Source: Candidatus Shapirobacteria bacterium (lineage in GTDB: Bacteria; Patescibacteriota; Microgenomatia; UBA12405). Taken from it: 64,000 nucleotides of DNA. Below are positions 10,856 to 55,656 of the stretch, one piece after another (the first letter of the stretch is position 1; each line of letters starts with the position of its first letter). A program made the translations under genes and the position numbers. Under the pieces are notes generated by a model, which saw only the letters and a list, made by a program, of their open reading frames with translations, searched no databases and was not told the origin of the DNA. The stretch spans positions 355,324 through 419,323 of the forward strand of contig JACPHO010000001.1 in assembly GCA_016188545.1 (NCBI GenBank). Reading direction: 5' to 3'.

Positions 10856-11066
10856 ATTCTGAGTGTATTATAGCTGTTTTAGAAGTTCTAAGTTACCAGA
10901 GATCAAGGCATCTTTTTTCTCTCTAGACCACCCCTTTATTTGTTTTTCCCTTCTCATAACATCAACTCTTGAAGAATATTCTTCTTTGTAAACTTTGCCC
11001 CATAAAGCGAGTGCTGTTGGTGATCAACAATTCTCAGCGAGCTCTCTAGGCGAGTCGAAAGGTTAA

Positions 11067-11189
11067 GGCTGTACGTACAAATTCGAACGTATTTTCAAAA
11101 TGGACTCTCGCCCCGCATCGCCGCGGGTGGGGGCGCGGCGAAAAAAGCGGGGCTCGATTGAACAAAACTGTCGGCTCGAAACGCAAAAA
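11067..11189 (+). repeat. mosaic GC-rich structured repeat, copy A (P1 imperfect palindrome + nested GC hairpin + tail)
   Basis: GGCTGTACGTACAAATTCGAACGTATTTT is followed by the nested hairpin GCCCCGC[ATCGCCGCG..CGCGGCGA]AAAAAGCGGGGC. The tail is CTCGATTGAACAAAACTGTCGGCTCGAAACGCAAAAA. Related copies lie at 13423..13520 and, inverted, at 16166..16280. Confidence 0.7.
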
Positions 11190-12203: not shown

Positions 12204-12253
12204 ATTGTTTTCGTCTTTGTAGACTCATCAGTCCCGCAATTCGGGATAACAAT
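12204..12253 (-). ncRNA. hammerhead ribozyme motif, type III (HHR-3)
   Basis: Minus-strand RNA, 5' to 3': AUUGUU-A-UCCCG[AAUUG]CGGGA-CUGAUGA-GUCU[ACAA]AGAC-GAAA-ACAAU. Conserved core nucleotides CUGAUGA, GAAA, U16.1 and H17 are all present. Stems I and II are closed and stem III is open. Confidence 0.7.
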
Positions 12254-12277
12254 TTCCTCTTGGCACAACCAACGCTT

Positions 12278-12297
12278 GGGTCCCCTTGAGGGGACCC
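12278..12297 (-). other. perfect 8-bp GC hairpin between the stop codon and HHR-3 (module hairpin)
   Basis: GGGTCCCC-TTGA-GGGGACCC. No U-run follows on the minus strand, so it is not a terminator. It lies 40 nt 3' of the stop of gene 12338..12976. Confidence 0.6.
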
Positions 12298-12337
12298 ACT
12301 CGTCGTTTTTTTTGTTGTGCCTTGAGGGCGATAGGAA

Positions 12338-12976
12338 TTACTGCACAATGATGGTGACTGTAATCGTTTCTGTTGTTGCAAGATTGACATAATCTTCGCC
12401 AGTTACGATAATCGTGAATGTCTGCCCAACAGCATCTGCGGGTGCATTTGCTTTCAGTAATCCCGATTGAGCAGCATAGAAATCATCTGAGGTAATCCAA
12501 CTCGGAAGGTTTGAGTATTCGTAATGACCATTCCCATTGGGGATGTTTGAACCGATGGATATCCAAGATTCTTGTCCAGCACTCACGACAGCTGTAGCGG
12601 TTAAGTCATAGTGCACTGTGTGAGGTATTTCAACTGTGTACACCAGAGTGATAACTTCATCACCTGATATGGAGGTTGCCTCGCAGGTGAATTCGCCTTC
12701 AACATCAGCAGAAGGGTATGAATCAATTGTTTGACTACCCAATGTCAGCCATGAGGGGCAGTCGGAAGACAAATTGTAGCCACCTGTAGTTGCAAATCCA
12801 GCAACTTTCAAATCCAGTGACTTGCCGAGACCTGCGGCAACTCTGATGTATTGAGTGCTGGTGATAACTGAGGCAGTGTCTTGGGGGGTGCTTGTGGCGG
12901 AAGGCGCGCAAGCAGTCATGATAATCGTCATGGCTACGAATGCAAAGAGCAGGGAACGTACGGTATTGCGGGACAT
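12338..12976 (-). CDS. secreted lipoprotein with tandem Ig-like/beta-rich repeats; visibly GC-richer than surroundings
   Basis: There is a signal peptide with a lipobox-like IMTAC. Repeated SWLT/SWIT segments are present. The likely start is the internal ATG at 12976 (MSRNTVRS). Its base composition is atypical for this window. Confidence 0.5.
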   Translation of the reverse strand: MSRNTVRSLLFAFVAMTIIMTACAPSATSTPQDTASVITSTQYIRVAAGLGKSLDLKVAGFATTGGYNLSSDCPSWLTLGSQTIDSYPSADVEGEFTCEATSISGDEVITLVYTVEIPHTVHYDLTATAVVSAGQESWISIGSNIPNGNGHYEYSNLPSWITSDDFYAAQSGLLKANAPADAVGQTFTIIVTGEDYVNLATTETITVTIIVQ

Positions 12977-13238
12977 GGCTTCTCCTTTTGAAGTCGAACA
13001 AAATTGTGGGAAATACTTGGACTCTTTATTAGAAAACAACCGAGTTGTTTTTACTAATTAAAAAGCCCAAATACTTGCTTAAATCGCCATTCCTATCCTA
13101 ATTATTAAAGTGCATCTGAACAGAAAATACATAGCTAATATGTAAACCTATTCGTCCATATTTTAACATAACTAGACATAAAAAACAATGTTATAAGATA
13201 TATAGAATATTTTCTTAATCGCGAGCGTAAAAATAATT

Positions 13239-13260: not shown

Positions 13261-13332
13261 CAAAACCGTCGGCTCGAACTACTTTTTATTGGATAAAACC
13301 ATACTCCCAAAATATCAAAATGACGGATTCTT

Positions 13333-13520
13333 GGCGCTGGCCAATCCTGTGCGCCTGTCCGCCTCTGGCGGAGGCGTGGCCTGCGCCATGGCAAAAATCA
13401 TGCGATTTGCAAAAACTGTTGAGGCTGTACGTACAAATTCGAACGTATTTTAAGAAATTATAACAGTCGCCCCGCTCGTCCCGTCGCCGGTCGGGACGAA
13501 AAACGCGGGGCTCGATTGAA
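13333..13520 (+). repeat. mosaic GC-rich structured repeat, copy B (P3 long hairpin + CGATTTGCAAAAACTGTT linker + P1 + nested GC hairpin variant 2)
   Basis: P3 is TGGCGCTGGCCAATCCTGTGCGCCTGTCCGCCTCTGGCGGAGGCGTGGCCTGCGCCA at 13333-13390. P1 is at 13423-13451. The hairpin GCCCCGC[TCGTCCCG..CGGGACGA]AAAACGCGGGGC is at 13466-13520. Confidence 0.7.
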
Positions 13521-16165: not shown

Positions 16166-16280
16166 TTTTGCGTTTCGAGCCGACAGTTTTGTTCAATCGA
16201 GCCCCGCGTTTTTCGTCCCGACCGGCGACGGGACGAGCGGGGCGATGTTAAAATATTTGAAATACAGTTCGAATTTTTCG
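16166..16280 (-). repeat. mosaic GC-rich structured repeat, copy C (inverted orientation)
   Basis: Its reverse complement reads P1-like AATTCGAACTGTATTT, then hairpin variant 2 (identical to copy B), then GGGGCTCGATTGAACAAAACTGTCGGCTCGAAACGCAAAAA (tail identical to copy A). Confidence 0.7.
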
Positions 16281-16322
16281 GTACAATGCCGACAATTCGT
16301 GAATGTCATGATTTTTTGATGT

Positions 16323-16381
16323 GGCGCTGGCCAATTCTGTGCGCCTGTCCGCCTATGGCGGAGGCGTGGCCTGCGCCACAT
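16323..16381 (+). repeat. P3 long GC hairpin element, second copy, abutting tRNA-Gln
   Basis: TGGCGCTGGCCAATTCTGTGCGCCTGTCCGCCTATGGCGGAGGCGTGGCCTGCGCCA. It differs from the 13333-13390 copy at only two positions, both in predicted unpaired regions. The same CGATTTGCAAAAACTGTT linker follows. Confidence 0.7.
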
Positions 16382-16407
16382 CAAAATCTTTCGATTTGCA
16401 AAAACTG

Positions 16408-16478
16408 TTACCCCGCATGGATTCGAACCACAATCACGAAGTTCAGAGCTTCGTGTCCTACCATTAGACGACGGGGTA
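16408..16478 (-). tRNA. tRNA-Gln (anticodon CUG)
   Basis: Reverse complement: TACCCCG-TC-GTCTAATGGTAGGAC-A-CGAAG-CTCTGAA-CTTCG-TGAT-TGTGG-TTCGAAT-CCATG-CGGGGTA-A. The cloverleaf has a 7-bp acceptor stem and a TTCGAAT T-loop. Confidence 0.85.
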
Positions 16479-16490
16479 TTAAAAAATAAA

Positions 16491-16581
16491 GAGCTAGTGT
16501 CCTATTGTACCAAGCCGTAGCCTTGGCGTAGGCTGGTTTACCTTGCCGTAACGGGGTGAAGGCAGGCCATTAGACGACGGG
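16491..16581 (-). pseudogene. partial duplicate of the tRNA-Gln 5' half, interrupted by about 62 nt
   Basis: TACCCCGTCGTCTAATGG is followed by a 62-nt insert and then TAGGACAC-TAGCTC. This matches the first 18 nt, the D-arm 3' part and the anticodon-stem start of the adjacent tRNA-Gln. Confidence 0.55.
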
Positions 16582-16668
16582 GTATCGACGTATTTTACAT
16601 TATATTGTTTTAAAAGTCTCCCTTGTCAAAGGGAGATTTAGAGGGATTGAACATGTTAAAATAAACCC

Positions 16669-16854: not shown

Positions 16855-17455
16855 TATCTTCTTCCCCGTGTCCAGGTAGAACTATAACCTCTCCCGGTAA
16901 TTTAATAAGCTCTCTTAAACTTTTTCGTAAATCAGACATCGAGGAATAGTTATGATCAGTACTTCCTATCCCACCCTCCGCAAACAGGGTATCCCCGCTA
17001 AACAATAATTTACCACTGGTATCATAAAAACAAACCCCACCAGGCGTATGACCGGGGGTTTTCAGTACCTTCAGCTTCTCCTCCCCAAGTAATATGTTTT
17101 TTGCGTTACTCAGGTCAACATCTGTCTCAGCTATGTCTAGCGTGTCTACTCTATGTTTCAAAAAATGTTCTGCTGTTTCTTTTTGTCGCTTAAGTAAAAA
17201 CATGTCGAGTTTGCTTACTCCGATAGGAATGTTGTACATCAATTTTAAGTCCATAGCTGCCAACAAGTGGTCAAAGTGCCCGTGTGTCGCCAGTATCATT
17301 AGTAGCTTCAATTGGAGCCTCTGAACCTCATCGCTAATCTCAGTCGCAGCATCAGCCGGGTCAATAATTACTCCTTCTTTTGTTTCATCATCCCAGACTA
17401 TATAACAGTTGGTTTCTAGTTCACCCAAGACCAACTTTTCGTATTTCAACATCAT
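16817..17455 (-). CDS. MBL-fold metallo-hydrolase (glyoxalase II-like)
   Basis: The HxHxDH motif ATHGHFDH is present, with downstream His/Asp ligands. Confidence 0.75.
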   Translation of the reverse strand: MMLKYEKLVLGELETNCYIVWDDETKEGVIIDPADAATEISDEVQRLQLKLLMILATHGHFDHLLAAMDLKLMYNIPIGVSKLDMFLLKRQKETAEHFLKHRVDTLDIAETDVDLSNAKNILLGEEKLKVLKTPGHTPGGVCFYDTSGKLLFSGDTLFAEGGIGSTDHNYSSMSDLRKSLRELIKLPGEVIVLPGHGEEDTILNSSRRLGSL

Positions 17456-17504
17456 TATATTTTACTTTTTATTTTTTATTTTTGAATTTTTGATATACTT
17501 CACT

Positions 17505-18099: not shown

Positions 18100-18357
18100 T
18101 TAGCCGTTGATTTTAGGTTCAATCACCTCTACCAACCTAGCACATACTAGTTCAAACTCTGGCATAGTCTCCTTATACATTTGAATTCCGCCGCCAAAAA
18201 TAGCAGCCACCTCAACCCTATTATTATTGCCTTTTATTGAGGCAGTCAAGTCTTTTAATGTCGCTTCCTGATACCGAGCTATTTCAACAAGCCTGTTCAT
18301 CAGAGCTTCTTCCTTAAGTTCAATAATATTTTCAGCTGTAATAACTGGTTTATACAT
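18100..18357 (-). CDS. hypothetical protein
   Basis: 85-aa ORF with no motif. Confidence 0.3.
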   Translation of the reverse strand: MYKPVITAENIIELKEEALMNRLVEIARYQEATLKDLTASIKGNNNRVEVAAIFGGGIQMYKETMPEFELVCARLVEVIEPKING

Positions 18358-22191: not shown

Positions 22192-22250
22192 CCCACAGCC
22201 CCCGTCTTTTGTTTTTTACTTTTGAATTTTTACTTTTGAAATTCTCAGCT

Positions 22251-24833: not shown

Positions 24834-25516
24834 GATGTAAGTTGTATAAACTTTTTCTCGAGGTTTTTTATTTTTGAAGTCGTCTCATCCAAAACAATTT
24901 TTCCACTATTAATTATCAATAGTTGACTGCAAATAGCTGCTGCCTCAGGAAGTATATGTGTCGATAGAATAACCATCTTCTGCTTAGCCAGTTTCTTAAT
25001 AAGTTGTCTTATTTCAATTATCTGCTTGGGGTCCAGACCAGTTGTCGGTTCATCTAGTATCAGTAGGTCTGGATTGCCAATAAGTGCGGCAGCCAACCCT
25101 ACTCTTTGGCGATATCCCTTGGACAGGGTTTCTATCTTACTCTCGTACACATTAGCCAGTCCACATTCCGTCGTCACCCTCATTGTTTCCATAACACAAT
25201 CCTCAGCCCCTTTTATTTTTACGATGTATTCCAAATATTCCCTGACCAACATATACCCGTAGAGTGGATTATTTTCAGGTAAATAGCCGATCTTCGATTT
25301 GTGAAGAAGTGATTTTAGATTAACTTCCTTCATATCCCAAGTCACCGACCCGCTATCTGCTCCAAAATAACCCGTTAAAATTCTCATCAATGTTGTCTTA
25401 CCAGCACCGTTTGGGCCAAGTAGACCAGTAACACTCTTGTCTTTTATTTCAAAACTGACATTATCAAGTACTGTCTTGTCTCCAAATTTTTTACTTATAT
25501 TTTTAACACTCAACAT
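24830..25516 (-). CDS. ABC transporter ATP-binding protein (GldA-like)
   Basis: Walker A GPNGAGKTT, the signature LSKGYRQR and Walker B LLILDEPT are present. Confidence 0.85.
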   Translation of the reverse strand: MLSVKNISKKFGDKTVLDNVSFEIKDKSVTGLLGPNGAGKTTLMRILTGYFGADSGSVTWDMKEVNLKSLLHKSKIGYLPENNPLYGYMLVREYLEYIVKIKGAEDCVMETMRVTTECGLANVYESKIETLSKGYRQRVGLAAALIGNPDLLILDEPTTGLDPKQIIEIRQLIKKLAKQKMVILSTHILPEAAAICSQLLIINSGKIVLDETTSKIKNLEKKFIQLTS

Positions 25517-25520
25517 GTTT

Positions 25521-25898
25521 TTACTTTTTACTTTTTACTTTCGAATTTTCTATCCTAAGTATCTTTTTTATCACAACAAAAACCAGTAGTGCAATAATCA
25601 AAAAGTTTAAAGTAGATCCCATCATATTACCGATCTTAAATTCCGATCCAGCTATTGTGAATACAATTTCTCTCCATGAACCGGTAGGAGATATAATCCC
25701 TATTATTGGCATAATCATATCATTGGCAATCGATGTAGTTAGATCCTTTACTGCCCCGGCAATCACCACCCCGATAGCCAGTTCCAATACATTATAGTTT
25801 TTCAAAAAATCCAAAAACTCATTTTTACTTTCACTCGCTTTCTCGATAATAATTTTAGTTCTTCCTGCTTTAACTTTTACAACTTTTGTTTTTTCCAT
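25521..25898 (-). CDS. mscL: large-conductance mechanosensitive channel MscL
   Basis: Motifs FLDFLKNYNVLELAIGVVIAGAV, DMIMPIIG and a C-terminal hydrophobic helix are present. Confidence 0.75.
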   Translation of the reverse strand: MEKTKVVKVKAGRTKIIIEKASESKNEFLDFLKNYNVLELAIGVVIAGAVKDLTTSIANDMIMPIIGIISPTGSWREIVFTIAGSEFKIGNMMGSTLNFLIIALLVFVVIKKILRIENSKVKSKK

Positions 25899-26231
25899 GA
25901 CAAATTATACAACCTGTTCGGTAGGTTAGTTTACCCTGAGCGAATGAAACGAGTCGAATGGGTCATTGCGCTTTGCCCGCCGAAGCGAAGCGTAGGTGGG
26001 AGCGAAGGAATGAGCGTGGCAATCTTCTGTAATTCTGCCAGTGGGATTAACTTTTCCCACTATTCCAAATTCTGTTTACTTTTGAATTTATTTTTTTTGC
26101 CTTATTCTCGTTTCTATCCTATTCCAGTTACTAGTTACTAATTACCAGTGACATCTCACACCTTATGTTTCTTGTTTTTATTTTTAACTTTTTACTTTTA
26201 ACCTTTTACTTTTGTACTTAGTTTTTTTGTT

Positions 26232-26291
26232 AATGATTTCGTCCTCCGAATCGAAGGACTCATCAGGCCCGATACCTATCGGACAATCATT
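26232..26291 (-). ncRNA. hammerhead ribozyme motif, type III (HHR-1)
   Basis: Minus-strand RNA: AAUGAU-U-GUCCGAU[AGGU]AUCGGGC-CUGAUGA-GUCCUUCG[AUU]CGGAGGAC-GAAA-UCAUU. All invariant core nucleotides are present. Stem III is a 6-bp AAUGAU/AUCAUU duplex. Confidence 0.75.
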
Positions 26292-26308
26292 CACTAAGCA
26301 CACCGCGG

Positions 26309-26333
26309 CTGGCAGGGGATAAACCCCTGCCAG
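26309..26333 (-). other. perfect 10-bp GC hairpin between the stop codon and HHR-1 (module hairpin)
   Basis: CTGGCAGGGG-ATAAA-CCCCTGCCAG. It lies 30 nt 3' of the stop at 26363 and is not followed by a U-run. Confidence 0.6.
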
Positions 26334-26362
26334 TAGCATGTGCGCTCAGCGCTTTGGATAGG

Positions 26363-27085
26363 TTATTGGTAAGGAGTTGCGCAGAATACCGCATTTTCGT
26401 GATCAGTATGTTCATCTCTGTCAAACTCGTAGTAGTTATCCCACTTCTGCGAGGCGACATTAATATATGGACTTTCAATCGTTATTACTGGCATTGGGAT
26501 TGCCATTTCGTTTGAATAACCAACTTGGTCATCGAACAGCATCCATCTGGCGTCGTTTACGTATAAAAGGCTTCCTTTGGCTTCACGCGTGTTCGTGTCA
26601 GTATGCATAACAATACTATTATCGTAGCAAGTCAAGCTTCGTTGATTTGTTTCAGGAGCTGTTCTAGGCAAAGCATCAAAGTAGGCATAAACCTCAGTCA
26701 CGACTGTTTCTTTGTGCTCGGCAAACGCCCAGATCGTCATCCTATACAAGCCTGACTTTCCAGTCGTCCATTCAAAAACATCGAAATCCCCCGGTTGAAT
26801 CTCAAAATGGCCATAGTCTTCATCCATCCACATTACACTTCTCCAGGTAATTCTCTGGGGGTTGACGTTTTCTTCAGATTTATCAATTCCATCTCCTTCA
26901 GGTGCAAAGTCGATTTTTGCATAATAAAGAAGGGGGTCCTCGGATGAATTTGGATGGATAGTTGCTTTGCAAGTTTTGCGGTCACAGATTATCTTTGCAT
27001 TTGCAGGCATTGCTTTCCCACATGCTGAAAGAAACAACCCAATTGTTGCAAAGAACAATACAGCTAACAGTTTTCTTGTTTTCAT
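26363..27085 (-). CDS. secreted hypothetical lipoprotein
   Basis: The signal peptide MKTRKLLAVLFFATIGLFLSACG has a lipobox-like LSAC. No known domain. Confidence 0.45.
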   Translation of the reverse strand: MKTRKLLAVLFFATIGLFLSACGKAMPANAKIICDRKTCKATIHPNSSEDPLLYYAKIDFAPEGDGIDKSEENVNPQRITWRSVMWMDEDYGHFEIQPGDFDVFEWTTGKSGLYRMTIWAFAEHKETVVTEVYAYFDALPRTAPETNQRSLTCYDNSIVMHTDTNTREAKGSLLYVNDARWMLFDDQVGYSNEMAIPMPVITIESPYINVASQKWDNYYEFDRDEHTDHENAVFCATPYQ

Positions 27086-27138
27086 TTCAATCTCCTCTGT
27101 TTAGATAGAATATTTCAAACGACCTTTTAGGGTCATCA

Positions 27139-27441
27139 TCAGGCACGCCTGGAATTACGAATTACCGCTATGATCAAAAATCCCCCAAGCAAAATCAACC
27201 CCAGTGATACAAGGAAAATCCCTTCAAACCCCCAGGTAATTTCCCATAACATTCGTTCAATTGAGACCTTGGTTATTGGAAAAAACTGCCAAATTAGCCA
27301 AATTTTTTCGCGACAATTTATCGCCGCGTTGCCATTGGGGCAATTTGGCCACAACCCCATTGAGGTTACCCACAACAGGGAACCGGCAACCATCGAGTAA
27401 AGCCCCGCTAAAATTCCAAAAAAACTTACAAATCTTTTCAT
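27139..27441 (-). CDS. small hypothetical membrane protein
   Basis: The likely start is the ATG at 27441 (MKRFVSFFGILAG), preceded by AAGGAG. It ends in the triple stop TGATGATGA. Confidence 0.4.
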   Translation of the reverse strand: MKRFVSFFGILAGLYSMVAGSLLWVTSMGLWPNCPNGNAAINCREKIWLIWQFFPITKVSIERMLWEITWGFEGIFLVSLGLILLGGFLIIAVIRNSRRA

Positions 27442-27585
27442 CTCACATTCTCCTTTTTGTATATTTTTAGACACACGGTCAATTCCCCTTTTGGGGTAAC
27501 TGACTAGTGTGTCTAAAACTTTTTCCTATCCAAATTTTTAAAGAACTAAACCTACTTCAACACGCAATGTATTGAGTTAGTTGCA

Positions 27586-27646
27586 AATGATTTCGTTCTT
27601 CAAATCAATGAAGAAGCTCATCAGTCCGCCTTGGGCGGAAATCATT
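27586..27646 (-). ncRNA. hammerhead ribozyme motif, type III (HHR-2)
   Basis: Minus-strand RNA: AAUGAU-U-UCCGCC[CAA]GGCGGA-CUGAUGA-G(C)UUCUUC[AUUGAUUU]GAAGAAC-GAAA-UCAUU. The core and stem III match HHR-1. Stems I and II differ but remain paired. Confidence 0.75.
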
Positions 27647-27666
27647 CACGGCATACAATCGCAGGT

Positions 27667-27686
27667 GGGGAGCCAGAAGGCTCCCC
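27667..27686 (-). other. perfect 8-bp GC hairpin between the stop codon and HHR-2 (module hairpin)
   Basis: GGGGAGCC-AGAA-GGCTCCCC, 23 nt 3' of the stop at 27709. Confidence 0.6.
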
Positions 27687-27708
27687 AAATCCTGGATTGC
27701 GCCGCGCT

Positions 27709-28200
27709 TTACGGAGTTTCGATAATGGAGTTGACACAGTATAGTGTTTCATCTTGATAGAAACGGCAGTCCGCCAATTTTTCAACCTTGTATCCTGTAA
27801 ATTCCGATATCCAACCGGATGTATTATCGTCTTGCGTTGCAACTTCCCGCATCCAAACTTCTTCTCCATACAGAAGATAAACAATATGAACTCCGTCTGG
27901 ACTCCAGAAGAATTCAGTCACAGAGGTGACTATTAGGACCAAACCACCTGGAATTGTAGGATTGACTTGCAACACCGAAACCCCTGTTTCAAGGTTTTTA
28001 AGTATAAATGCTTCCTGTCCTTTAGTCGAAAACTTACTTTCCCCATGTTGATAAATCAACTTTGGTGCTTCGGTGGCTACAGGCATTGCAGTAGGGCTGA
28101 TTGCTGGCCGATGATCGCCATTATTTATGGTCGATGCAAGTAATGCAACTGCGAGACCCAAAACAATGTGCCACCATTTTAAACCTAGTCGAGTTTTCAT
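27709..28200 (-). CDS. secreted hypothetical protein
   Basis: Signal peptide MKTRLGLKWWHIVLGLAVALLAS. No known domain. Confidence 0.45.
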   Translation of the reverse strand: MKTRLGLKWWHIVLGLAVALLASTINNGDHRPAISPTAMPVATEAPKLIYQHGESKFSTKGQEAFILKNLETGVSVLQVNPTIPGGLVLIVTSVTEFFWSPDGVHIVYLLYGEEVWMREVATQDDNTSGWISEFTGYKVEKLADCRFYQDETLYCVNSIIETP

Positions 28201-28279
28201 CTCTTCTCCTTAAATATAATTCCTCTGACAAAAAGCTGTCAGGCCAATTGAACTTCCCGAATCATTTGATTCGATCGTT

Positions 28280-28726
28280 TTAGCGCTCTGATTTTGCTTT
28301 TGGTGTGCAGGTTGGTATGGTTCTTCCAGCAGTTACAACACAAACCTGTGAAGAGGTATCGTAGGTCATTTGACCATAAGCTACCCACTTCGTCGAACCT
28401 GCTACGAACCAAGGTTCAGTCCAACAACTCCAGTCAAGTGTATTGCGATCATTCAATACTGCTATACACAATGATTGACTGTTGTGGTTCTGGTAAACAG
28501 CAGCTTGCATAATCTGCCTACCAGAAAAAGGAGACATCTGAGATGTTCCGTCAATATAGACCCCCTTCGGCTCTTCTGAAAATGGATTTTCGATGTGAAT
28601 ATTTTTTACTGTTTTAATTCCCCATGTTTTTATATCATCATCAAATCCGACCCCAACAGATACTGCAGCCAAAATCATACAAGCACAGACGCCGATCAAA
28701 ATTCCAATAACCAACAGTTTGTTCAT
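28280..28726 (-). CDS. secreted or membrane-anchored hypothetical protein (Cys-rich)
   Basis: N-terminal hydrophobic helix and several Cys residues. No known domain. Confidence 0.4.
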   Translation of the reverse strand: MNKLLVIGILIGVCACMILAAVSVGVGFDDDIKTWGIKTVKNIHIENPFSEEPKGVYIDGTSQMSPFSGRQIMQAAVYQNHNSQSLCIAVLNDRNTLDWSCWTEPWFVAGSTKWVAYGQMTYDTSSQVCVVTAGRTIPTCTPKAKSER

Positions 28727-28968
28727 CTCAACTCTCCTTTGAGTTTCAAATAGTCTTTGGATACACAGTTAACTTCCCCCTTTGGGTGAAATTAATCGGT
28801 GTACCCAAATCTTCTCTACTCCGTAATTTTTTAAAGTGCCAAGTAATCGGCATTACACAGCAATTGTGTAGTTTGATTACTTAGCAAATACTAGCAAAAA
28901 ATAACCCAAATGTCAATATTATGGGCTGTAATTTAAAGTAAAAATTCAAAAGTAAAAAGTAAAATAAC

Positions 28969-29319: not shown

Positions 29320-29370
29320 GTATTAATTCTAACAAGTTTAGTTTTTACTTTTTATTTTTTACTTTTGAAT

Positions 29371-30270
29371 TTATGCATTAAAGCTCCTCTCCATCCAATG
29401 TCGGTCTATCTCCACTGTCATTTCCAAAAATACTTTACGTCCAGACATTAGCTCCAATTCCTTTCTGGCGTTAAATCCGATTTCTTTTATTTTTTGCCCG
29501 TTCTTACCGATAATCATTTTCTTGTATCTATCTGCATTAGTGTTGATAACTGCCTTAATATAGATCAATTTTCCCTTATCTTTTACCTCTTTTACTTCAA
29601 CGTTAATGGTATAAGGCAGCTCTTCTCGTAAAAACAAATATGCCTTCTCCCTGATTATCTCTCCGATATACTCACGTGAACCCATTCCCATAAGTAGGCC
29701 TTTCTTTTCAGCCATCACACCCAGCTCGCTGTTTATTTCTTTCTCAGTTTTTTCGGGTAAAAAGTCAAAAATTAGGTTTAAAAGTCCCTTGACATTCTTT
29801 TCTTTTATAGCGCTAATACTGATGACCTTGTCAAATTCTTCCTCCAAGTAGTTATATTCAGCCAAGTGATCCTTGGTCCCAATAGCTTTATCTGTTTTGT
29901 TGTATACCAATATTTTTTTTGAAGGCATTTTACGAACTAATCCAATTACCTTATTCTCTTCTTCAGATTTCTCTCGGGAAATATCGACCAAGCAGACAAT
30001 TACATCCTTCCTGGCTGTTGACTTGGGCGCTTCCAAATTGATGTTCTTTGACATCAAGTCTTCTACTTGGTTAATGATTCCGGGTGTATCAGTAAAAACA
30101 ATCACTCCTTTCTCATTTCGGAACACCACTTGACTACTTTTTCGGGTTGTTTGCGGTAGGGGAGAAGTAATCGCTACCTTTTGGTTCATCAGCGCGTTTA
30201 GTAGAGTTGATTTACCGGTATTTGGTCGACCTACAATCGCGACACGACCAAACTTTAACTTATTTATCAT
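29371..30270 (-). CDS. era: GTPase Era
   Basis: The G1 motif GRPNTGKSTLLNAL and DTPG are present, with a C-terminal KH domain. Confidence 0.9.
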   Translation of the reverse strand: MINKLKFGRVAIVGRPNTGKSTLLNALMNQKVAITSPLPQTTRKSSQVVFRNEKGVIVFTDTPGIINQVEDLMSKNINLEAPKSTARKDVIVCLVDISREKSEEENKVIGLVRKMPSKKILVYNKTDKAIGTKDHLAEYNYLEEEFDKVISISAIKEKNVKGLLNLIFDFLPEKTEKEINSELGVMAEKKGLLMGMGSREYIGEIIREKAYLFLREELPYTINVEVKEVKDKGKLIYIKAVINTNADRYKKMIIGKNGQKIKEIGFNARKELELMSGRKVFLEMTVEIDRHWMERSFNA

Positions 30271-34683: not shown

Positions 34684-37005
34684 TTACATTTTTTCCAGTG
34701 TCCCAATTCCCAAAATATTTAGGCCATCCCTAATAATTTTTGCAGTTACAGCCGTCAAAAACACTCGCCGTCCCTCCTGAGGATCCCCAATAACTCTACA
34801 CTTCCCATAAAACTCATTATATTTTCTAGCCAAATTTAGTAAATATTCCGCCAACACCGCCGGGTTATATCTTTCACCAGCCTCGACAATCTTTTCCTTA
34901 AAAATATAAAAATATCGCAGCAGGGGAGTCTCATTCTCATCAAACCCTTCGCTTGTTTTGATGTTTGATGTTTGATGTTTGGATTTTAATATAACACTCT
35001 TACATCTGGCATAAGTGTATTGTAGATATGGTGAAGAATTTCCCTCCATGCTCATAACCCTATCCCAGTCAAAAACGATATCCTTTTTAGGGTCAGATGA
35101 CAAATCATTAAATTTCACCGCTCCTATAGCTACTTTTGCAATCGACACATTATCATTTTCAGGAGCGATACTTTTTGCCATATCCATGGCTTTATCAATT
35201 ATATCTGATAAATGGATAGTGTCACCTTTGCGAGTTGAAAATTTTCCGTCTTTCCAGCGAATCAAACCGTGGCCAATGTGGACAAAATTTGCCTCCCAGC
35301 CTACTAGTTTAGCCGCCGCGAATACTTGCTTAAAGTGCAATGTCTGCTCTGAGCCAACCTCATAAATAATCAAATCCGGGTTCCATTTTTCTTTTCTAAA
35401 TTTAATCGTTGCCAAATCTCGAGTAAAATATGTCGTCGCCCCATCCGATTTTAATATCATTGCCGGTGGTAAATTTGGCACTTCCACTATCTCTGCGCCA
35501 GCACTTATTTTACTCAATTTTTTATCCCTAAAAATCTGCTCGATTTCTGACAACATTTTTAAATAGAACTCCTCACCATAAGCATTATCAATTTTTACGC
35601 CCAACATTTCATAGACCCTGTTAAATTCTTTAATGGATATATCGATACATTCTCGCCAAATTTTTCGTGCCTCAACATCACCCTTTTCTAGCTTGGCAAA
35701 CCAGTCTCTACCCTCATCAATTAATGTTTTATCATTTTCTGACTCAGCGTGAAATCTGACATAAAGCTTTTCTAGTCCTTCTATTGTGCTTTCCATTCCC
35801 CAATGTTTTATCGCTGTTATCATTTTTCCAAATTGTGTACCCCAATCACCCAAGTGATTATCGCCAATTGTATTCCAACCCAACACTTTGTAAATGTTAT
35901 ACAAAGCATGTCCAATATTGGTTGACCTTAGGTGGCCTATCCCAAAAGGCTTCGCGATATTTGGTGATGAATATTCAACAATTACTGTTTTTCCTTTTCC
36001 GATGTTTTCTAATTCGTTTTTATACATATCACTCAAAATATAATTTGATTCATCAATCAGTACACTTTCTTTTATCCACAAGTTGCTAAATCCAGCTACA
36101 GTATCAACTCTTTCAATAACATCTAAATCGGAAAAATTAGCTATACCCCTTACTGCATAATCCCCAAATTTTTCCACTGCTGGGTGTTCAACTGGCATCT
36201 TTGCCACATCAAATATTTGTTTGGCAATGCCATAATATTTCTTTGCGTTAACAATCTTCTTTTTTTTACTTTCAATAATATCCTCAACTTTTTTTGATAC
36301 AAAATCAATTTCGACCGTAGGGTTATCCTTATCCAGCCACAATATCTCGAATGTTCCCCCAAACAATCCCTTAACTTTTTGTACAAATTCATTAGCTATT
36401 TTTTTTATCAAATCATCATTTATCCCCCTAAACCCATCCATCACGAAGTAACCGTTAGTCGACTCGCTCGTGAGTTTTGTGCGCTCACATTGTCGCCAGT
36501 TCAGCGCTCTAGTTGACAGGTCCAGTCCGTCACCCCACACTAGTTCACCTTCCACTGCCGATTTACTTTTTATTGCTCCAATTGGAAACCATTTTTCTCC
36601 ACCTTTGGCAATAAACAATCTAAAATTCCCATATACTTTGTCCAAGTCCTCACCTCCAAACGGAATAATATTGGTGATACTATACGAATTGTATAAATTT
36701 ACCATCGGGTTAATATCCGGAATCAGTCCGCCTTCCAAAACCCTTTTTGATAGTGCTACATGAGCCGGTGCAAAAACTTTTGGGTCAGTTCCAAATTCAC
36801 TGAAACACTTTTCGTAAGCTGTTACTTTTTCTAACTCAAAAAAACTTTCGCTGGTGTGTTGTTTTTTAAGACTTTCCTCGGCACTTCTCAAGAGTTCGAC
36901 TGATTTTTCAACTGACTGGTGGTTGTCAAATCCATAAATAATCGGTATCGCTACTACTAGGTTCGGAAACTTTTCAAAAACACTATTATCAATTTCAAAT
37001 TTCAT
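34684..37005 (-). CDS. argS: arginine--tRNA ligase with an N-terminal B3/4-like domain extension of about 230 aa
   Basis: The ArgRS core has SSPNIAKPFGIGHLRS (HIGH-type) and the Add-1 N-domain. Residues 1-230 resemble the PheT B3/4 editing or tRNA-binding fold (PMVNLYNSYSITNIIPFGGEDLDKV, ALNWRQCERTKL). Confidence 0.8.
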   Translation of the reverse strand: MKFEIDNSVFEKFPNLVVAIPIIYGFDNHQSVEKSVELLRSAEESLKKQHTSESFFELEKVTAYEKCFSEFGTDPKVFAPAHVALSKRVLEGGLIPDINPMVNLYNSYSITNIIPFGGEDLDKVYGNFRLFIAKGGEKWFPIGAIKSKSAVEGELVWGDGLDLSTRALNWRQCERTKLTSESTNGYFVMDGFRGINDDLIKKIANEFVQKVKGLFGGTFEILWLDKDNPTVEIDFVSKKVEDIIESKKKKIVNAKKYYGIAKQIFDVAKMPVEHPAVEKFGDYAVRGIANFSDLDVIERVDTVAGFSNLWIKESVLIDESNYILSDMYKNELENIGKGKTVIVEYSSPNIAKPFGIGHLRSTNIGHALYNIYKVLGWNTIGDNHLGDWGTQFGKMITAIKHWGMESTIEGLEKLYVRFHAESENDKTLIDEGRDWFAKLEKGDVEARKIWRECIDISIKEFNRVYEMLGVKIDNAYGEEFYLKMLSEIEQIFRDKKLSKISAGAEIVEVPNLPPAMILKSDGATTYFTRDLATIKFRKEKWNPDLIIYEVGSEQTLHFKQVFAAAKLVGWEANFVHIGHGLIRWKDGKFSTRKGDTIHLSDIIDKAMDMAKSIAPENDNVSIAKVAIGAVKFNDLSSDPKKDIVFDWDRVMSMEGNSSPYLQYTYARCKSVILKSKHQTSNIKTSEGFDENETPLLRYFYIFKEKIVEAGERYNPAVLAEYLLNLARKYNEFYGKCRVIGDPQEGRRVFLTAVTAKIIRDGLNILGIGTLEKM

Positions 37006-37020
37006 ACTTAATATTAAACC

Positions 37021-37064
37021 AAAAACCCCGCCTTTGGGATTAAATAATTAATCACAAGGACGGG
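37021..37064 (-). terminator. intrinsic terminator-like hairpin plus U-run in the argS leader (attenuator candidate)
   Basis: Minus-strand RNA CCCGUC-[loop with GAUUAA/UUAAUC sub-hairpin]-GGCGGG-G-UUUUU. It lies 16 nt before the argS ATG. Confidence 0.4.
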
Positions 37065-37092
37065 ATTTATCTGCCGGTAGGTAGATTTCTCT

Positions 37093-37104
37093 CGTGGTAC
37101 CACC
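37093..37104 (-). promoter_or_regulatory. T-box-like sequence in the argS leader
   Basis: Minus-strand AAAGGUGGUACCACG compares with the T-box consensus AGGGUGGNACCGCG. The UGGU would pair with a tRNA ACCA 3' end. Confidence 0.3.
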
Positions 37105-37261
37105 TTTATTTTTCTCTTTTGAGTTTGTACGGTTCACTCCGTTTCCGATTTTGCGGAAGACTCCACCTTCGCGACAGGCTTCGTTGTCTTTGGAAATTAT
37201 ATACTATTCATTGTCATCTGGGTAGAATCTAACTAATCTCCACACGAAACACACCTAATAG

Positions 37262-54236: not shown

Positions 54237-55493
54237 TCAGTCTTCCATTACTCTCTCGTTCCAAAAAAACAAAAAGGCAGGTTTATTGTTACTTTTTTTA
54301 GCTCCATTTAGAAAGACATCTGCTGCTGCAGGAGTTCTCGCTCTTTGAACAAAAACTACGTTATCTTCACCGGCTAGTTCTTTTCCCATTACAAATTCCA
54401 GAGCCATTTTCTTCTTCGCTAAATTTCTTGCTGACTCCCTTGTTTTTAAATTTTCAGGTAGACGTCTTTCTTGAAGACGGGTAAAAATTCCATCAACCTC
54501 AGATTCAACCTGCTTTTCAGTAAACACAGTCTCAGGATGTACCATAATTTTTTTTACATCAGGGAGGCAGAAAAATTCTTCTCTACTCCTTACACCCAAT
54601 TGTCTCGATACTTTTTCAATTTTTGAGCCTGGCAGTATCTTACTAGTTAAGGGCTCAAATTTTTTTTCAAATTCTTCAACGGCTTGTTCCCTATTTGGGG
54701 AATCAATGACAAAAGCGTCAATGTCCACTAAAGTCACCTTTGGAGAATTCATTATTTTCCACTTGTTTAATATTTTCGTAATTCCCTGAACAGAAGCAAA
54801 GTTTACTTCCTGATCAACAACGGCTTTCCTCCCACTCGACGTAGTAGTTTCAAACCAAATTTCCGGAGAAACCGATATCCCCTCAGTTTCCGAGTCACGC
54901 TGAGGTGGACATCTTAATATATTCAGGTCCAAACCTCTTTTTCCGCAAGCGGCATTTGCCAATGATTTTACTAATGACGCCATATTCAACATATCACCAA
55001 AATCTGTTTGAGTCGACACCAGCTCAACCAAACAGTTAACCACATTATCCGCCTGAGAATTTGTACAACCAAGTTCTTTTGCCCTGAGTTTCCATGATTC
55101 AATTTGACCATCCAATCTTATGTTTCTAGCAATTTCAATTCCATTACCTTGAAGTTCATCTCTAATTCTCCGTTTTAATATACCTGACTGAATGCCTTGT
55201 TCAGTTTTAGCTTTTGTTGGTCGGTCTGTAGTCAGCTGCTTCTTTACTTCACTTACGGTCAAGCCCAACCTGTCGGCGGACATTCTAGCAGTAATTTCTC
55301 CCCATTTTGAGCCAAAATCATTATTAGTATCATGAATGACTAGTGGACGAATTGTTTCATTTACTTTTGCGTTAATTGCAGGCCCAATTTCCTTCTCAGG
55401 TATTTGAGGAAACAAAAAATTAGCAACTTTATGTTTTGTTTGATTTGATATTTTCATATTATCAATAAGGTAACCTCCCATTCTCCCTACCAA
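54237..55493 (-). CDS. hypothetical protein
   Basis: 418 aa with no recognisable motif. It sits between tyrS and tRNA-Tyr. Confidence 0.35.
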   Translation of the reverse strand: MVGRMGGYLIDNMKISNQTKHKVANFLFPQIPEKEIGPAINAKVNETIRPLVIHDTNNDFGSKWGEITARMSADRLGLTVSEVKKQLTTDRPTKAKTEQGIQSGILKRRIRDELQGNGIEIARNIRLDGQIESWKLRAKELGCTNSQADNVVNCLVELVSTQTDFGDMLNMASLVKSLANAACGKRGLDLNILRCPPQRDSETEGISVSPEIWFETTTSSGRKAVVDQEVNFASVQGITKILNKWKIMNSPKVTLVDIDAFVIDSPNREQAVEEFEKKFEPLTSKILPGSKIEKVSRQLGVRSREEFFCLPDVKKIMVHPETVFTEKQVESEVDGIFTRLQERRLPENLKTRESARNLAKKKMALEFVMGKELAGEDNVVFVQRARTPAAADVFLNGAKKSNNKPAFLFFWNERVMED

Positions 55494-55584
55494 TCGGCAA
55501 AAACCCCAAATTTTTAGTATTACCGAAACCGATCATTTTTTCTGTTGTTTTTATAAACATATTATTAATAAATAATAAACTTAG

Positions 55585-55656
55585 TACGGAGGAGGGGAGT
55601 TGAACCCCTATAAAACTGTTTTACAGACAGTTGCATTACCGGCCTGCCCCCTCCGT
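55585..55656 (-). tRNA. tRNA-Tyr (anticodon GUA), short variable arm
   Basis: Reverse complement: ACGGAGG-GG-GCAGGCCGGTAATGCA-ACTGT-CTGTAAA-ACAGT-TTTAT-AGGGG-TTCAACT-CCCCT-CCTCCGT. The 7-bp acceptor stem is perfect. The D-stem is short. Confidence 0.7.

Follow-up and report, generated by a model that had tools for sequence, protein, structure and literature searches.

A candidate type III hammerhead ribozyme module behind secreted-protein genes of Candidatus Shapirobacteria

Genes and features of the locus

The DNA analysed here, referred to as the window, is a stretch of 64,000 nucleotides (nt) from a MAG of Candidatus Shapirobacteria (Microgenomates, Patescibacteria/CPR). Between era and mscL it carries, on the minus strand, a cluster of small genes preceded by one good promoter, a sigma-70-like TTGACA-17-TAGTAT with an extended TG (28888..28916, minus strand), and this promoter stretch is conserved with the related locus L002. 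The first gene pair (27709..28726, minus strand) is made up of a 148-aa ORF (28280-28726) and a 163-aa ORF (27709-28200), both possessing N-terminal signal or membrane-anchor segments. The second pair consists of a small membrane-protein gene of 100 aa (27139..27441, minus strand), which lies downstream of a leader hairpin and an AAAGGAG ribosome-binding site, and a gene for a 240-aa lipoprotein (…LFLSAC; 26363..27085, minus strand). The lipoprotein belongs to no Pfam or PHROG family, a homolog search with it returned only itself (‘hypothetical protein HYV64_02360, Candidatus Shapirobacteria’), and Pfam and PHROGs gave no match for the cassette proteins as a group. The ORF starts in the mechanical list for 27139-27474 and 12338-13039 are probably too far upstream. 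Because of the positions of the leader hairpins and ribosome-binding sites we place these starts at ATG 27441 (100 aa), which is the probable one, and at ATG 12976 (212 aa), which an exact protein match in a public assembly confirms.

The flagged element, a type III hammerhead motif at 26232..26291 on the minus strand (hammerhead B), sits behind the lipoprotein gene. Between the end of the TAA stop (26363-26365) and the start of the motif at 26291, on the same strand, the distance is 72 nt, exactly the spacing and orientation reported in the preliminary description, and the secreted nature of the upstream gene that was also reported there is borne out by a lipoprotein N-terminus, MKTRKLLAVLFFATIGLFLSAC, with a lipobox. 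Altogether the window holds three hammerheads, all on the transcribed strand and each 3' of a signal-peptide or lipoprotein ORF. Hammerhead C (27583..27649, minus strand), also of type III, lies between the 163-aa and the 100-aa genes, has a bulged C in stem II and U27640 as H17, and has its stem III (AAUGAU/AUCAUU) in common with B. C and B thereby bracket two ORFs, an arrangement that recurs in L002. Hammerhead A (12204..12253, minus strand; type III, H17 = A12247) belongs to a separate locus, 3' of the 212-aa lipoprotein gene (12338-12976).

Each hammerhead is part of a larger 3' module, in the order stop codon, UUCCUAUCC, hairpin of 60-72 nt, hammerhead and, in several relatives, an intrinsic terminator. 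In module B the imperfect 60-nt hairpin (26292..26351, minus strand; -44.8 kcal/mol) comprises an apical GC helix and a basal helix, and its last base directly adjoins stem III. The hairpin of module C (27647..27706, minus strand; 60 nt, -41.7 kcal/mol) abuts its hammerhead and that of module A (12256-12327, minus strand) has 72 nt and -43.8 kcal/mol, so that the range is -41.7 to -44.8 kcal/mol with a gap to stem III of 0-2 nt. The 3' copy of the UUCCUAUCC motif behind the lipoprotein gene, CCUAUCC (26356..26362, minus strand), follows right after the stop and is complementary to the GGAUAGGAA of the 5' leader, and UUCCUAUCC stands between stop codon and hairpin in 8 of the 9 module copies aligned. 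In module A the post-stop motif is UUCCUAUCG (12329-12337, minus strand), matching GGAUAGGAA at 13090-13098. Of these parts the preliminary description had not included the long hairpin next to stem III, the pair of 9-mers or the relatives' terminator.

The hammerhead-linked genes also have a common 5' leader, in which GGAUAGGAA is followed by a hairpin of about 55 nt with covarying arms and then by AAAGGAG. In the window it is seen at 27465-27531, 28760-28830 and 13010-13098 (all minus strand), and outside it in L002, L003 and L048; it matches no Rfam family. For the second gene pair the leader hairpin has 54 nt (27465..27518, minus strand), its structure being kept in the cassettes of relatives, and GGAUAGGAA (27523..27531, minus strand) is the reverse complement of the post-stop motif. 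In L048 the pair reads GGAUAGAAA with UUUCUAUCC, the one case of a compensatory double change; in L022 the change still permits a G-U pair, and in the window's first cassette both 9-mer motifs are lost. These few cases suggest that GGAUAGGAA may pair with UUCCUAUCC, 5' end to 3' end, in the cassette mRNAs.

The window also holds several repeats. Many intergenic regions share an A/T-rich motif (minus strand …AAAAGUAAAAAGUAAAAA…), seen at 17443-17492, 22197-22246, 25502-25551, 29326-29375 and, just downstream of hammerhead B, 26154-26229; it could be promoter-associated or terminator-like. GC-rich nested-palindrome repeats of 88-92% identity are present at 11062-11162, 13418-13520 and approximately 16200-16260, the first two of which bracket the hammerhead A locus, and a Logan contig breaks at both. 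A second copy of the 3' flank of tRNA-Gln is found 3 kb off (13332-13420 and 16322-16409), and between the two lie MFS and DUF4145 genes, in a segment that may have been inserted as an island. The intact tRNA-Gln (16407-16478) is directly preceded by a copy of its own 5' part (UACCCCGUCGUCUAAUGG…UAGGACAC; 16490-16585, minus strand) that a GC-rich insert of some 60 nt splits; this could be a disrupted duplicate or an intron-like insertion.

Fold and scores of hammerhead B

Read directly, the minus strand from 26291 to 26232 is AATGAT-T-GTCCGATAGGTATCGGGC-CTGATGA-GTCCTTCGATTCGGAGGAC-GAAA-TCATT, or as RNA AAUGAU-U-GUCCGAU[AGGU]AUCGGGC-CUGAUGA-GUCCUUCG[AUU]CGGAGGAC-GAAA-UCAUU. Three helices of 7, 8 and 6 bp (stems I, II and III) surround a central junction. 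Stem I is a hairpin (26267-26284) with the 4-nt loop AGGU, stem II is a hairpin (26241-26259) with the 3-nt loop AUU and G10.1-C11.1 as its first pair, and stem III (26286-26291 with 26232-26237) includes the A15.1-U16.1 pair, formed by A26237 and U26286. The core C3-A9, CUGAUGA, occupies 26260-26266, the GAAA (G12-A14 = GAA) 26237-26240, and H17, a U and not a G, is 26285. With stems I and II capped and stem III open, the topology is that of type III. The preliminary description had read this topology, both core strings, the A15.1-U16.1 pair and H17 = U correctly, and the cut it predicted after AAUGAUU would fall between 26285 and 26284. U at H17 (triplet AUU) is allowed, but AUU is not known to be the fastest triplet for hammerhead cleavage.

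In RNAfold the hammerhead fold of copy B is the minimum free energy structure of a 74-nt segment (-24.2 kcal/mol, z = -2.9). In a 144-nt context a different fold, with AUCA paired to the UGAU of the core, is favoured over it by 0.3 kcal/mol in the nearest-neighbour model (P ~0.11). Tertiary contact between stems or loops I and II is required for rapid cleavage at low Mg2+; for loops 1 and 2 of copy B a G-U-containing pairing is the sole possibility, and no convincing contact was seen. At least 3 Watson-Crick loop-loop pairs are possible in 4 of the 9 family copies (null mean 1.5, P ~0.03), by which loop-loop kissing across the hammerhead copies is weakly supported.

A strict descriptor demanding a perfect core, at least 4 bp in all three stems and an H17 other than G found 2 elements in the 64,000-nt window, 26232-26291 and 12204-12253; with one stem defect allowed, 27583-27649 was added as a third. 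Over 300 dinucleotide shuffles of the window the strict descriptor gave a single match, and in approximately 275 kb of loci from relatives without the inserted genes and from unrelated genomes it gave none. The looser CTGATGA…GAAA pattern occurs 9 times in the window versus 2.1 expected. Two of its matches were rejected as hammerheads: at 27113-27142 the GAAA does not directly follow stem II, and the match at 18280-18328 lies inside an ORF and has 3-bp stems only.

In the covariance-model check suggested in the preliminary description, hammerhead B aligns end to end with the type III model RF00008 (model positions 1-54) at 26.7 bits, with an E-value of 0.0011 in a 351-nt search and 0.2 in the whole window, and its two sister copies reach 31.4 and 23.4 bits, all three below the gathering score of 48.5, which is a curated score cut-off for one model and not a structural or catalytic property of the family. 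As the match is real though below the gathering score, the check fails in form only. Because all three copies score below the cut-off, a default Rfam scan of the window is silent, with no hammerhead reported at the gathering threshold, and the three surface with E-value thresholds only. Divergent members from bacteria thus seem to go undetected at Rfam's type III threshold. Other sub-threshold matches in the window include a T-box-like leader (RF00230; 55701-55912, minus strand; 45.3 bits, E = 9e-7, gathering score 93), which lies directly 5' of tRNA-Tyr (55584-55656, minus strand) and a 418-aa ORF with no Pfam match (54237-55493, minus strand), a T-box before a tRNA gene being an odd arrangement. 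An arginyl-tRNA synthetase with an N-terminal B3_4 domain (34684-37005) has a second, weak T-box-like match upstream of it (37053-37193, minus strand; 25.8 bits, E = 0.096).

The low RF00008 score is what speaks for hammerhead B being a chance motif or a dead, inactive relic. Set against it are the rarity of such motifs in the shuffled windows, the nine homologous copies, in which the core never varies and the stems covary, and a strict co-occurrence with the cassette genes, and we consider this explanation scarcely credible.

Occurrence and covariation in relatives

Relatives were reached via the adjacent era gene, by DNA pattern, and via the adjacent mscL gene. Six lineages (the window, L002, L003, L022, L048 and L050-52) possess small ORFs between era and mscL, encoding proteins with signal peptides, lipoboxes or transmembrane segments, and in all six a type III hammerhead is found 64-75 nt after the stop of such an ORF. 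No hammerhead was found where era and mscL are adjacent (L053-56, L061-62 and L067), where they are separated by non-coding DNA only (L063-66), or where an opposite-strand ORF (L057) or an MFS gene (L058-60) lies between them. Elements at equivalent positions in related genomes, to which the preliminary description had also looked, thus exist: in L003 the ribozyme follows 73 nt after the stop of a 243-aa lipoprotein gene, the ortholog of the 240-aa gene, and differs by compensatory changes in all three stems, and 8 further copies show the same pattern. The two proteins are 35% identical and the 3' modules 69% identical at the DNA level; the non-coding module is therefore better conserved than its gene.

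Nine independent modules from the six lineages, each taken from stop codon to ribozyme end, were aligned by sequence alone with MAFFT (alignment A4). Mean column identity is approximately 56%, and yet CUGAUGAG and CGAAA are invariant in all nine homologous copies, the core string CTGATGAG is without change (n = 9), and the column pair 94/176, corresponding to A15.1-U16.1, is U-A in 9 of 9. RNAalifold recovers stems III, I and II together with the upstream hairpin from this alignment. Among the nine copies 21 of 33 pairs have changes on both sides, including 4 of 8 in stem III, 5 of 6 in stem I and 3 of 4 in stem II, and both helices of the upstream hairpin, the apical GC helix and the basal one, covary. 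Paired cells amount to 89.5%, versus 72.0 ± 1.8% after shuffling (0 of 500 shuffles reach the observed value) and 36-52% when the partner column is slid. Judged by sequence comparison, the nine-copy pattern is that of a selected RNA structure with a constrained catalytic core, and the minus strand of 26232-26291 is very probably a selected hammerhead ribozyme.

Stem II varies in size within the family. The hammerhead at 13092-13186 of L002 has a 51-nt branched stem II and the orthologous L022 copy a 20-nt one, and therefore stem II can take up large insertions in this family. Two further candidates for module features were rejected since neither is conserved: a GGAGG in the linker that resembles an SD sequence, and an ORF of 17 codons that spans the ribozyme of L022. 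A covariance model of the whole module built from A4 (R1) found neither additional nor degenerate copies when run on the window and on 15 loci, two pattern scans of viral contigs produced chance matches only, and a metagenome pattern scan gave 30 loci that were mostly chance, with L022 and L026 as the only family members, L026 being identical to L002a. Three other loci from that scan (L018, L030 and L037) are unrelated or doubtful and are not counted as family.

The patchy occurrence of the cassettes raises another explanation, that hairpin, hammerhead and 9-bp inverted repeats are DNA-level marks of the ends of exchanged era-mscL cassettes, with the ribozyme a passenger or a relic of a mobilisation mechanism. 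Cassette content does vary among close relatives, some of which lack a cassette altogether (L063, at 83% MscL identity); GGATAGGAA…TTCCTATCC bracket each cassette; the window and L048 have almost the same hairpin in the module closest to mscL, despite unrelated upstream genes; and Logan contigs break at or near modules. Yet the loci and their surroundings have no gene for an integrase, transposase or reverse transcriptase, target-site duplications are missing, and nothing matches phage DNA or PHROGs. By inspection the hairpin was rejected as an integron attC site (no GTTRRRY/RYYYAAC core sites, no integrase); a diversity-generating retroelement target was likewise rejected (no reverse transcriptase, no TR/VR repeat), as was a prophage context, the neighbours being era, mscL, an ABC transporter, obg and similar genes, with no phage DNA match. 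The hammerhead module was not found in IMG/VR. Moreover, several cassette proteins are diverged orthologs rather than unrelated imports, and the copies themselves are diverged, with compensatory changes and an invariant catalytic core, which argues for selection on RNA and not recent transposition. We therefore regard a mobile or DNA-level role as unlikely.

Proposed role and comparison with known systems

We consider it reasonably probable that self-cleavage forms mRNA 3' ends and punctuates the transcripts of the secreted-protein genes. Once transcribed, the upstream hairpin would fold first and would probably stack coaxially on stem III, after which the ribozyme would cut behind H17 (U26285). 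The upstream mRNA would thus be released with the hairpin, a tail of 7-10 nt (7 nt for hammerhead B) and a 2',3'-cyclic phosphate at its end. Both 3' exonucleases and tailing enzymes act poorly on ends of this kind, and the released mRNA should be resistant to them. The RNA beyond the cut, detached with a 5'-OH, would be the body of the ribozyme together with a terminator, where there is one, and with whatever transcript runs on into mscL or the following gene pair. In the cluster, hammerhead C would split a transcript of about 2.7 kb into two gene-pair mRNAs and hammerhead B would separate the cluster from mscL. We infer constitutive cleavage in vivo, with a stabilising or insulating effect on the mRNAs. 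In Bacillus, 5'-OH products are degraded by RNase J1, and therefore the effect on a downstream gene pair could be negative.

The relation to terminators differs between the lineages. No terminator follows hammerhead B or C in the window, where cleavage is therefore the only evident 3'-end signal. In L002b, L022, L048 and L050 a canonical intrinsic terminator stands 8-12 nt after the ribozyme, and cleavage would therefore remove ribozyme and terminator together; a second 3'-end device where a terminator already follows looks redundant, so that cleavage has no obvious benefit there. The ribozyme-terminator fragment of approximately 95 nt that is expected in these four copies might itself be the product, as a small RNA, or else the hammerhead might be a regulated switch in which the pairing of AUCA with the UGAU of the core competes with stem III, an alternative fold that is nearly isoenergetic in B and C. 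Both seem highly improbable to us: the alternative helix requires the derived form of stem III found in the window's lineage and is not general, the released fragment shows no sequence conservation beyond the catalytic core, and there is no evident ligand-binding domain or partner site.

The stem III that B and C share bears on another reading, namely that cuts at both hammerheads excise a 1,355-nt RNA (27639 to 26285) with two ORFs, whose ends become joined to give a circular or end-joined mRNA. The 3' end made at B (…AAUGAUU>p) would pair with the 3' strand of C's stem III at the RNA's own 5' end, and either the hammerhead reaction run in reverse or a ligase of the RtcB type would seal the junction, as is the case in retrozymes and viroid-like RNAs. 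B and C differ in stems I and II, and yet have an identical, derived stem III and H17 (GUGAAUGAU-U / AUCAUU), whereas UUGAUUGU-A / ACAAUC stands in their positional orthologs, which are L048 and L003 for B and L002a for C; a 3' end made at B could therefore dock on the body of C, and the type III topology would bring the two ends of the excised RNA together. Circles were a possibility considered by Perreault et al. (PMC3088659), who found none. The shared stem III is a single lineage event that short-tract gene conversion between direct repeats 1.35 kb apart explains equally well, and cassettes with a single hammerhead (A, L003, L048 and L050) cannot circularise in this manner and yet keep the same module. 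We hold circularisation to be quite unlikely.

Although speculative, the two ends might instead be joined by base pairing. Such an mRNA format, of 5' GGAUAGGAA plus hairpin of about 55 nt and 3' UUCCUAUCC plus ribozyme-trimmed hairpin, with both ends paired in a closed loop, is doubtful on present evidence. If it were true, two ribozymes with matching stem III that flank genes could give a covalently circular, translatable mRNA.

Punctuation by cleavage, the role we favour, matches by analogy the role proposed for clustered bacterial hammerheads (PMC3088659). For those hammerheads, cutting of polycistronic transcripts was demonstrated in vitro and, with one triple set, on expression in E. coli as well (Perreault et al. 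2011, PMC3088659). Published reviews record type I and III hammerheads from bacterial intergenic regions, and the function of prokaryotic hammerheads still counts as unsettled (PMC6155905). That bacterial hammerheads can flank small, non-conserved ORFs has already been described. Our literature search found no paper linking hammerheads or self-cleaving ribozymes with CPR/Patescibacteria, nor did we find described the CPR host, the non-phage chromosomal context, or a fixed hairpin-ribozyme-terminator module with complementary 5' and 3' 9-mers. Most known prokaryotic hammerheads lie in prophages, where context says little, and here the setting is chromosomal, with the ribozyme tied one-to-one to fast-evolving secreted or surface proteins in an episymbiotic CPR lineage. 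The fixed architecture gives a concrete prediction, that of ribozyme-defined, hairpin-protected mRNA 3' ends.

The module shares with the type III hammerheads of Rfam (RF00008, clan CL00010; sTRSV, PLMVd and plant retrozymes) the core, the A15.1-U16.1 pair, an H17 that is not G, the G10.1-C11.1 pair, and the topology of capped stems I and II with an open stem III. Whereas those lie in a circular RNA replicon or an LTR, the hammerheads described here lie in mRNA 3' UTRs of a bacterial (CPR) chromosome, with a stem II that ranges from 4 bp up to a 51-nt branched insert, no conserved loop-loop contact, and a long hairpin fused to stem III. As in the clustered bacterial and prophage hammerheads of Perreault et al. 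(2011, PMC3088659; reviewed by de la Pena et al. 2017, PMC6155905), copies on the same strand bracket single genes or short gene blocks for small proteins of unknown function, and there, too, polycistronic RNA is proposed to be processed into gene-length mRNAs. In contrast to them, the present module has no prophage, integrase or ardA context, resides in a Patescibacteria/CPR host, and has several accessory parts: a 9-mer behind the stop codon, a hairpin abutting stem III, a terminator, and on the 5' side a leader hairpin with the complementary 9-mer. Retrozymes and viroid-like circular RNAs likewise have two direct-repeat type III hammerheads with matching stem III, as do B and C around 1,355 nt; the segment flanked here, however, is protein-coding, has no LTR-length repeats, PBS or PPT, and single-copy modules exist.

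Two engineered or eukaryotic systems offer further comparison. The module may be likened to RiboJ synthetic insulators, which consist of the sTRSV type III hammerhead with an added hairpin. RiboJ also cuts near its own 5' edge and uncouples the flanking RNA contexts, its adjacent hairpin securing folding and stability, but it is placed in 5' UTRs with the hairpin downstream; the present module is natural, stands in the 3' UTR and has its hairpin upstream of the ribozyme, and the hairpin would therefore stay on the upstream mRNA. In the 3' UTR of rodent Clec2 genes cis cleavage by a discontinuous hammerhead reportedly affects expression of the upstream ORF. That eukaryotic ribozyme is said to be split by hundreds of nucleotides and to lower expression by removing the poly(A) tail, whereas in the module described here a protective hairpin would be retained on the mRNA.
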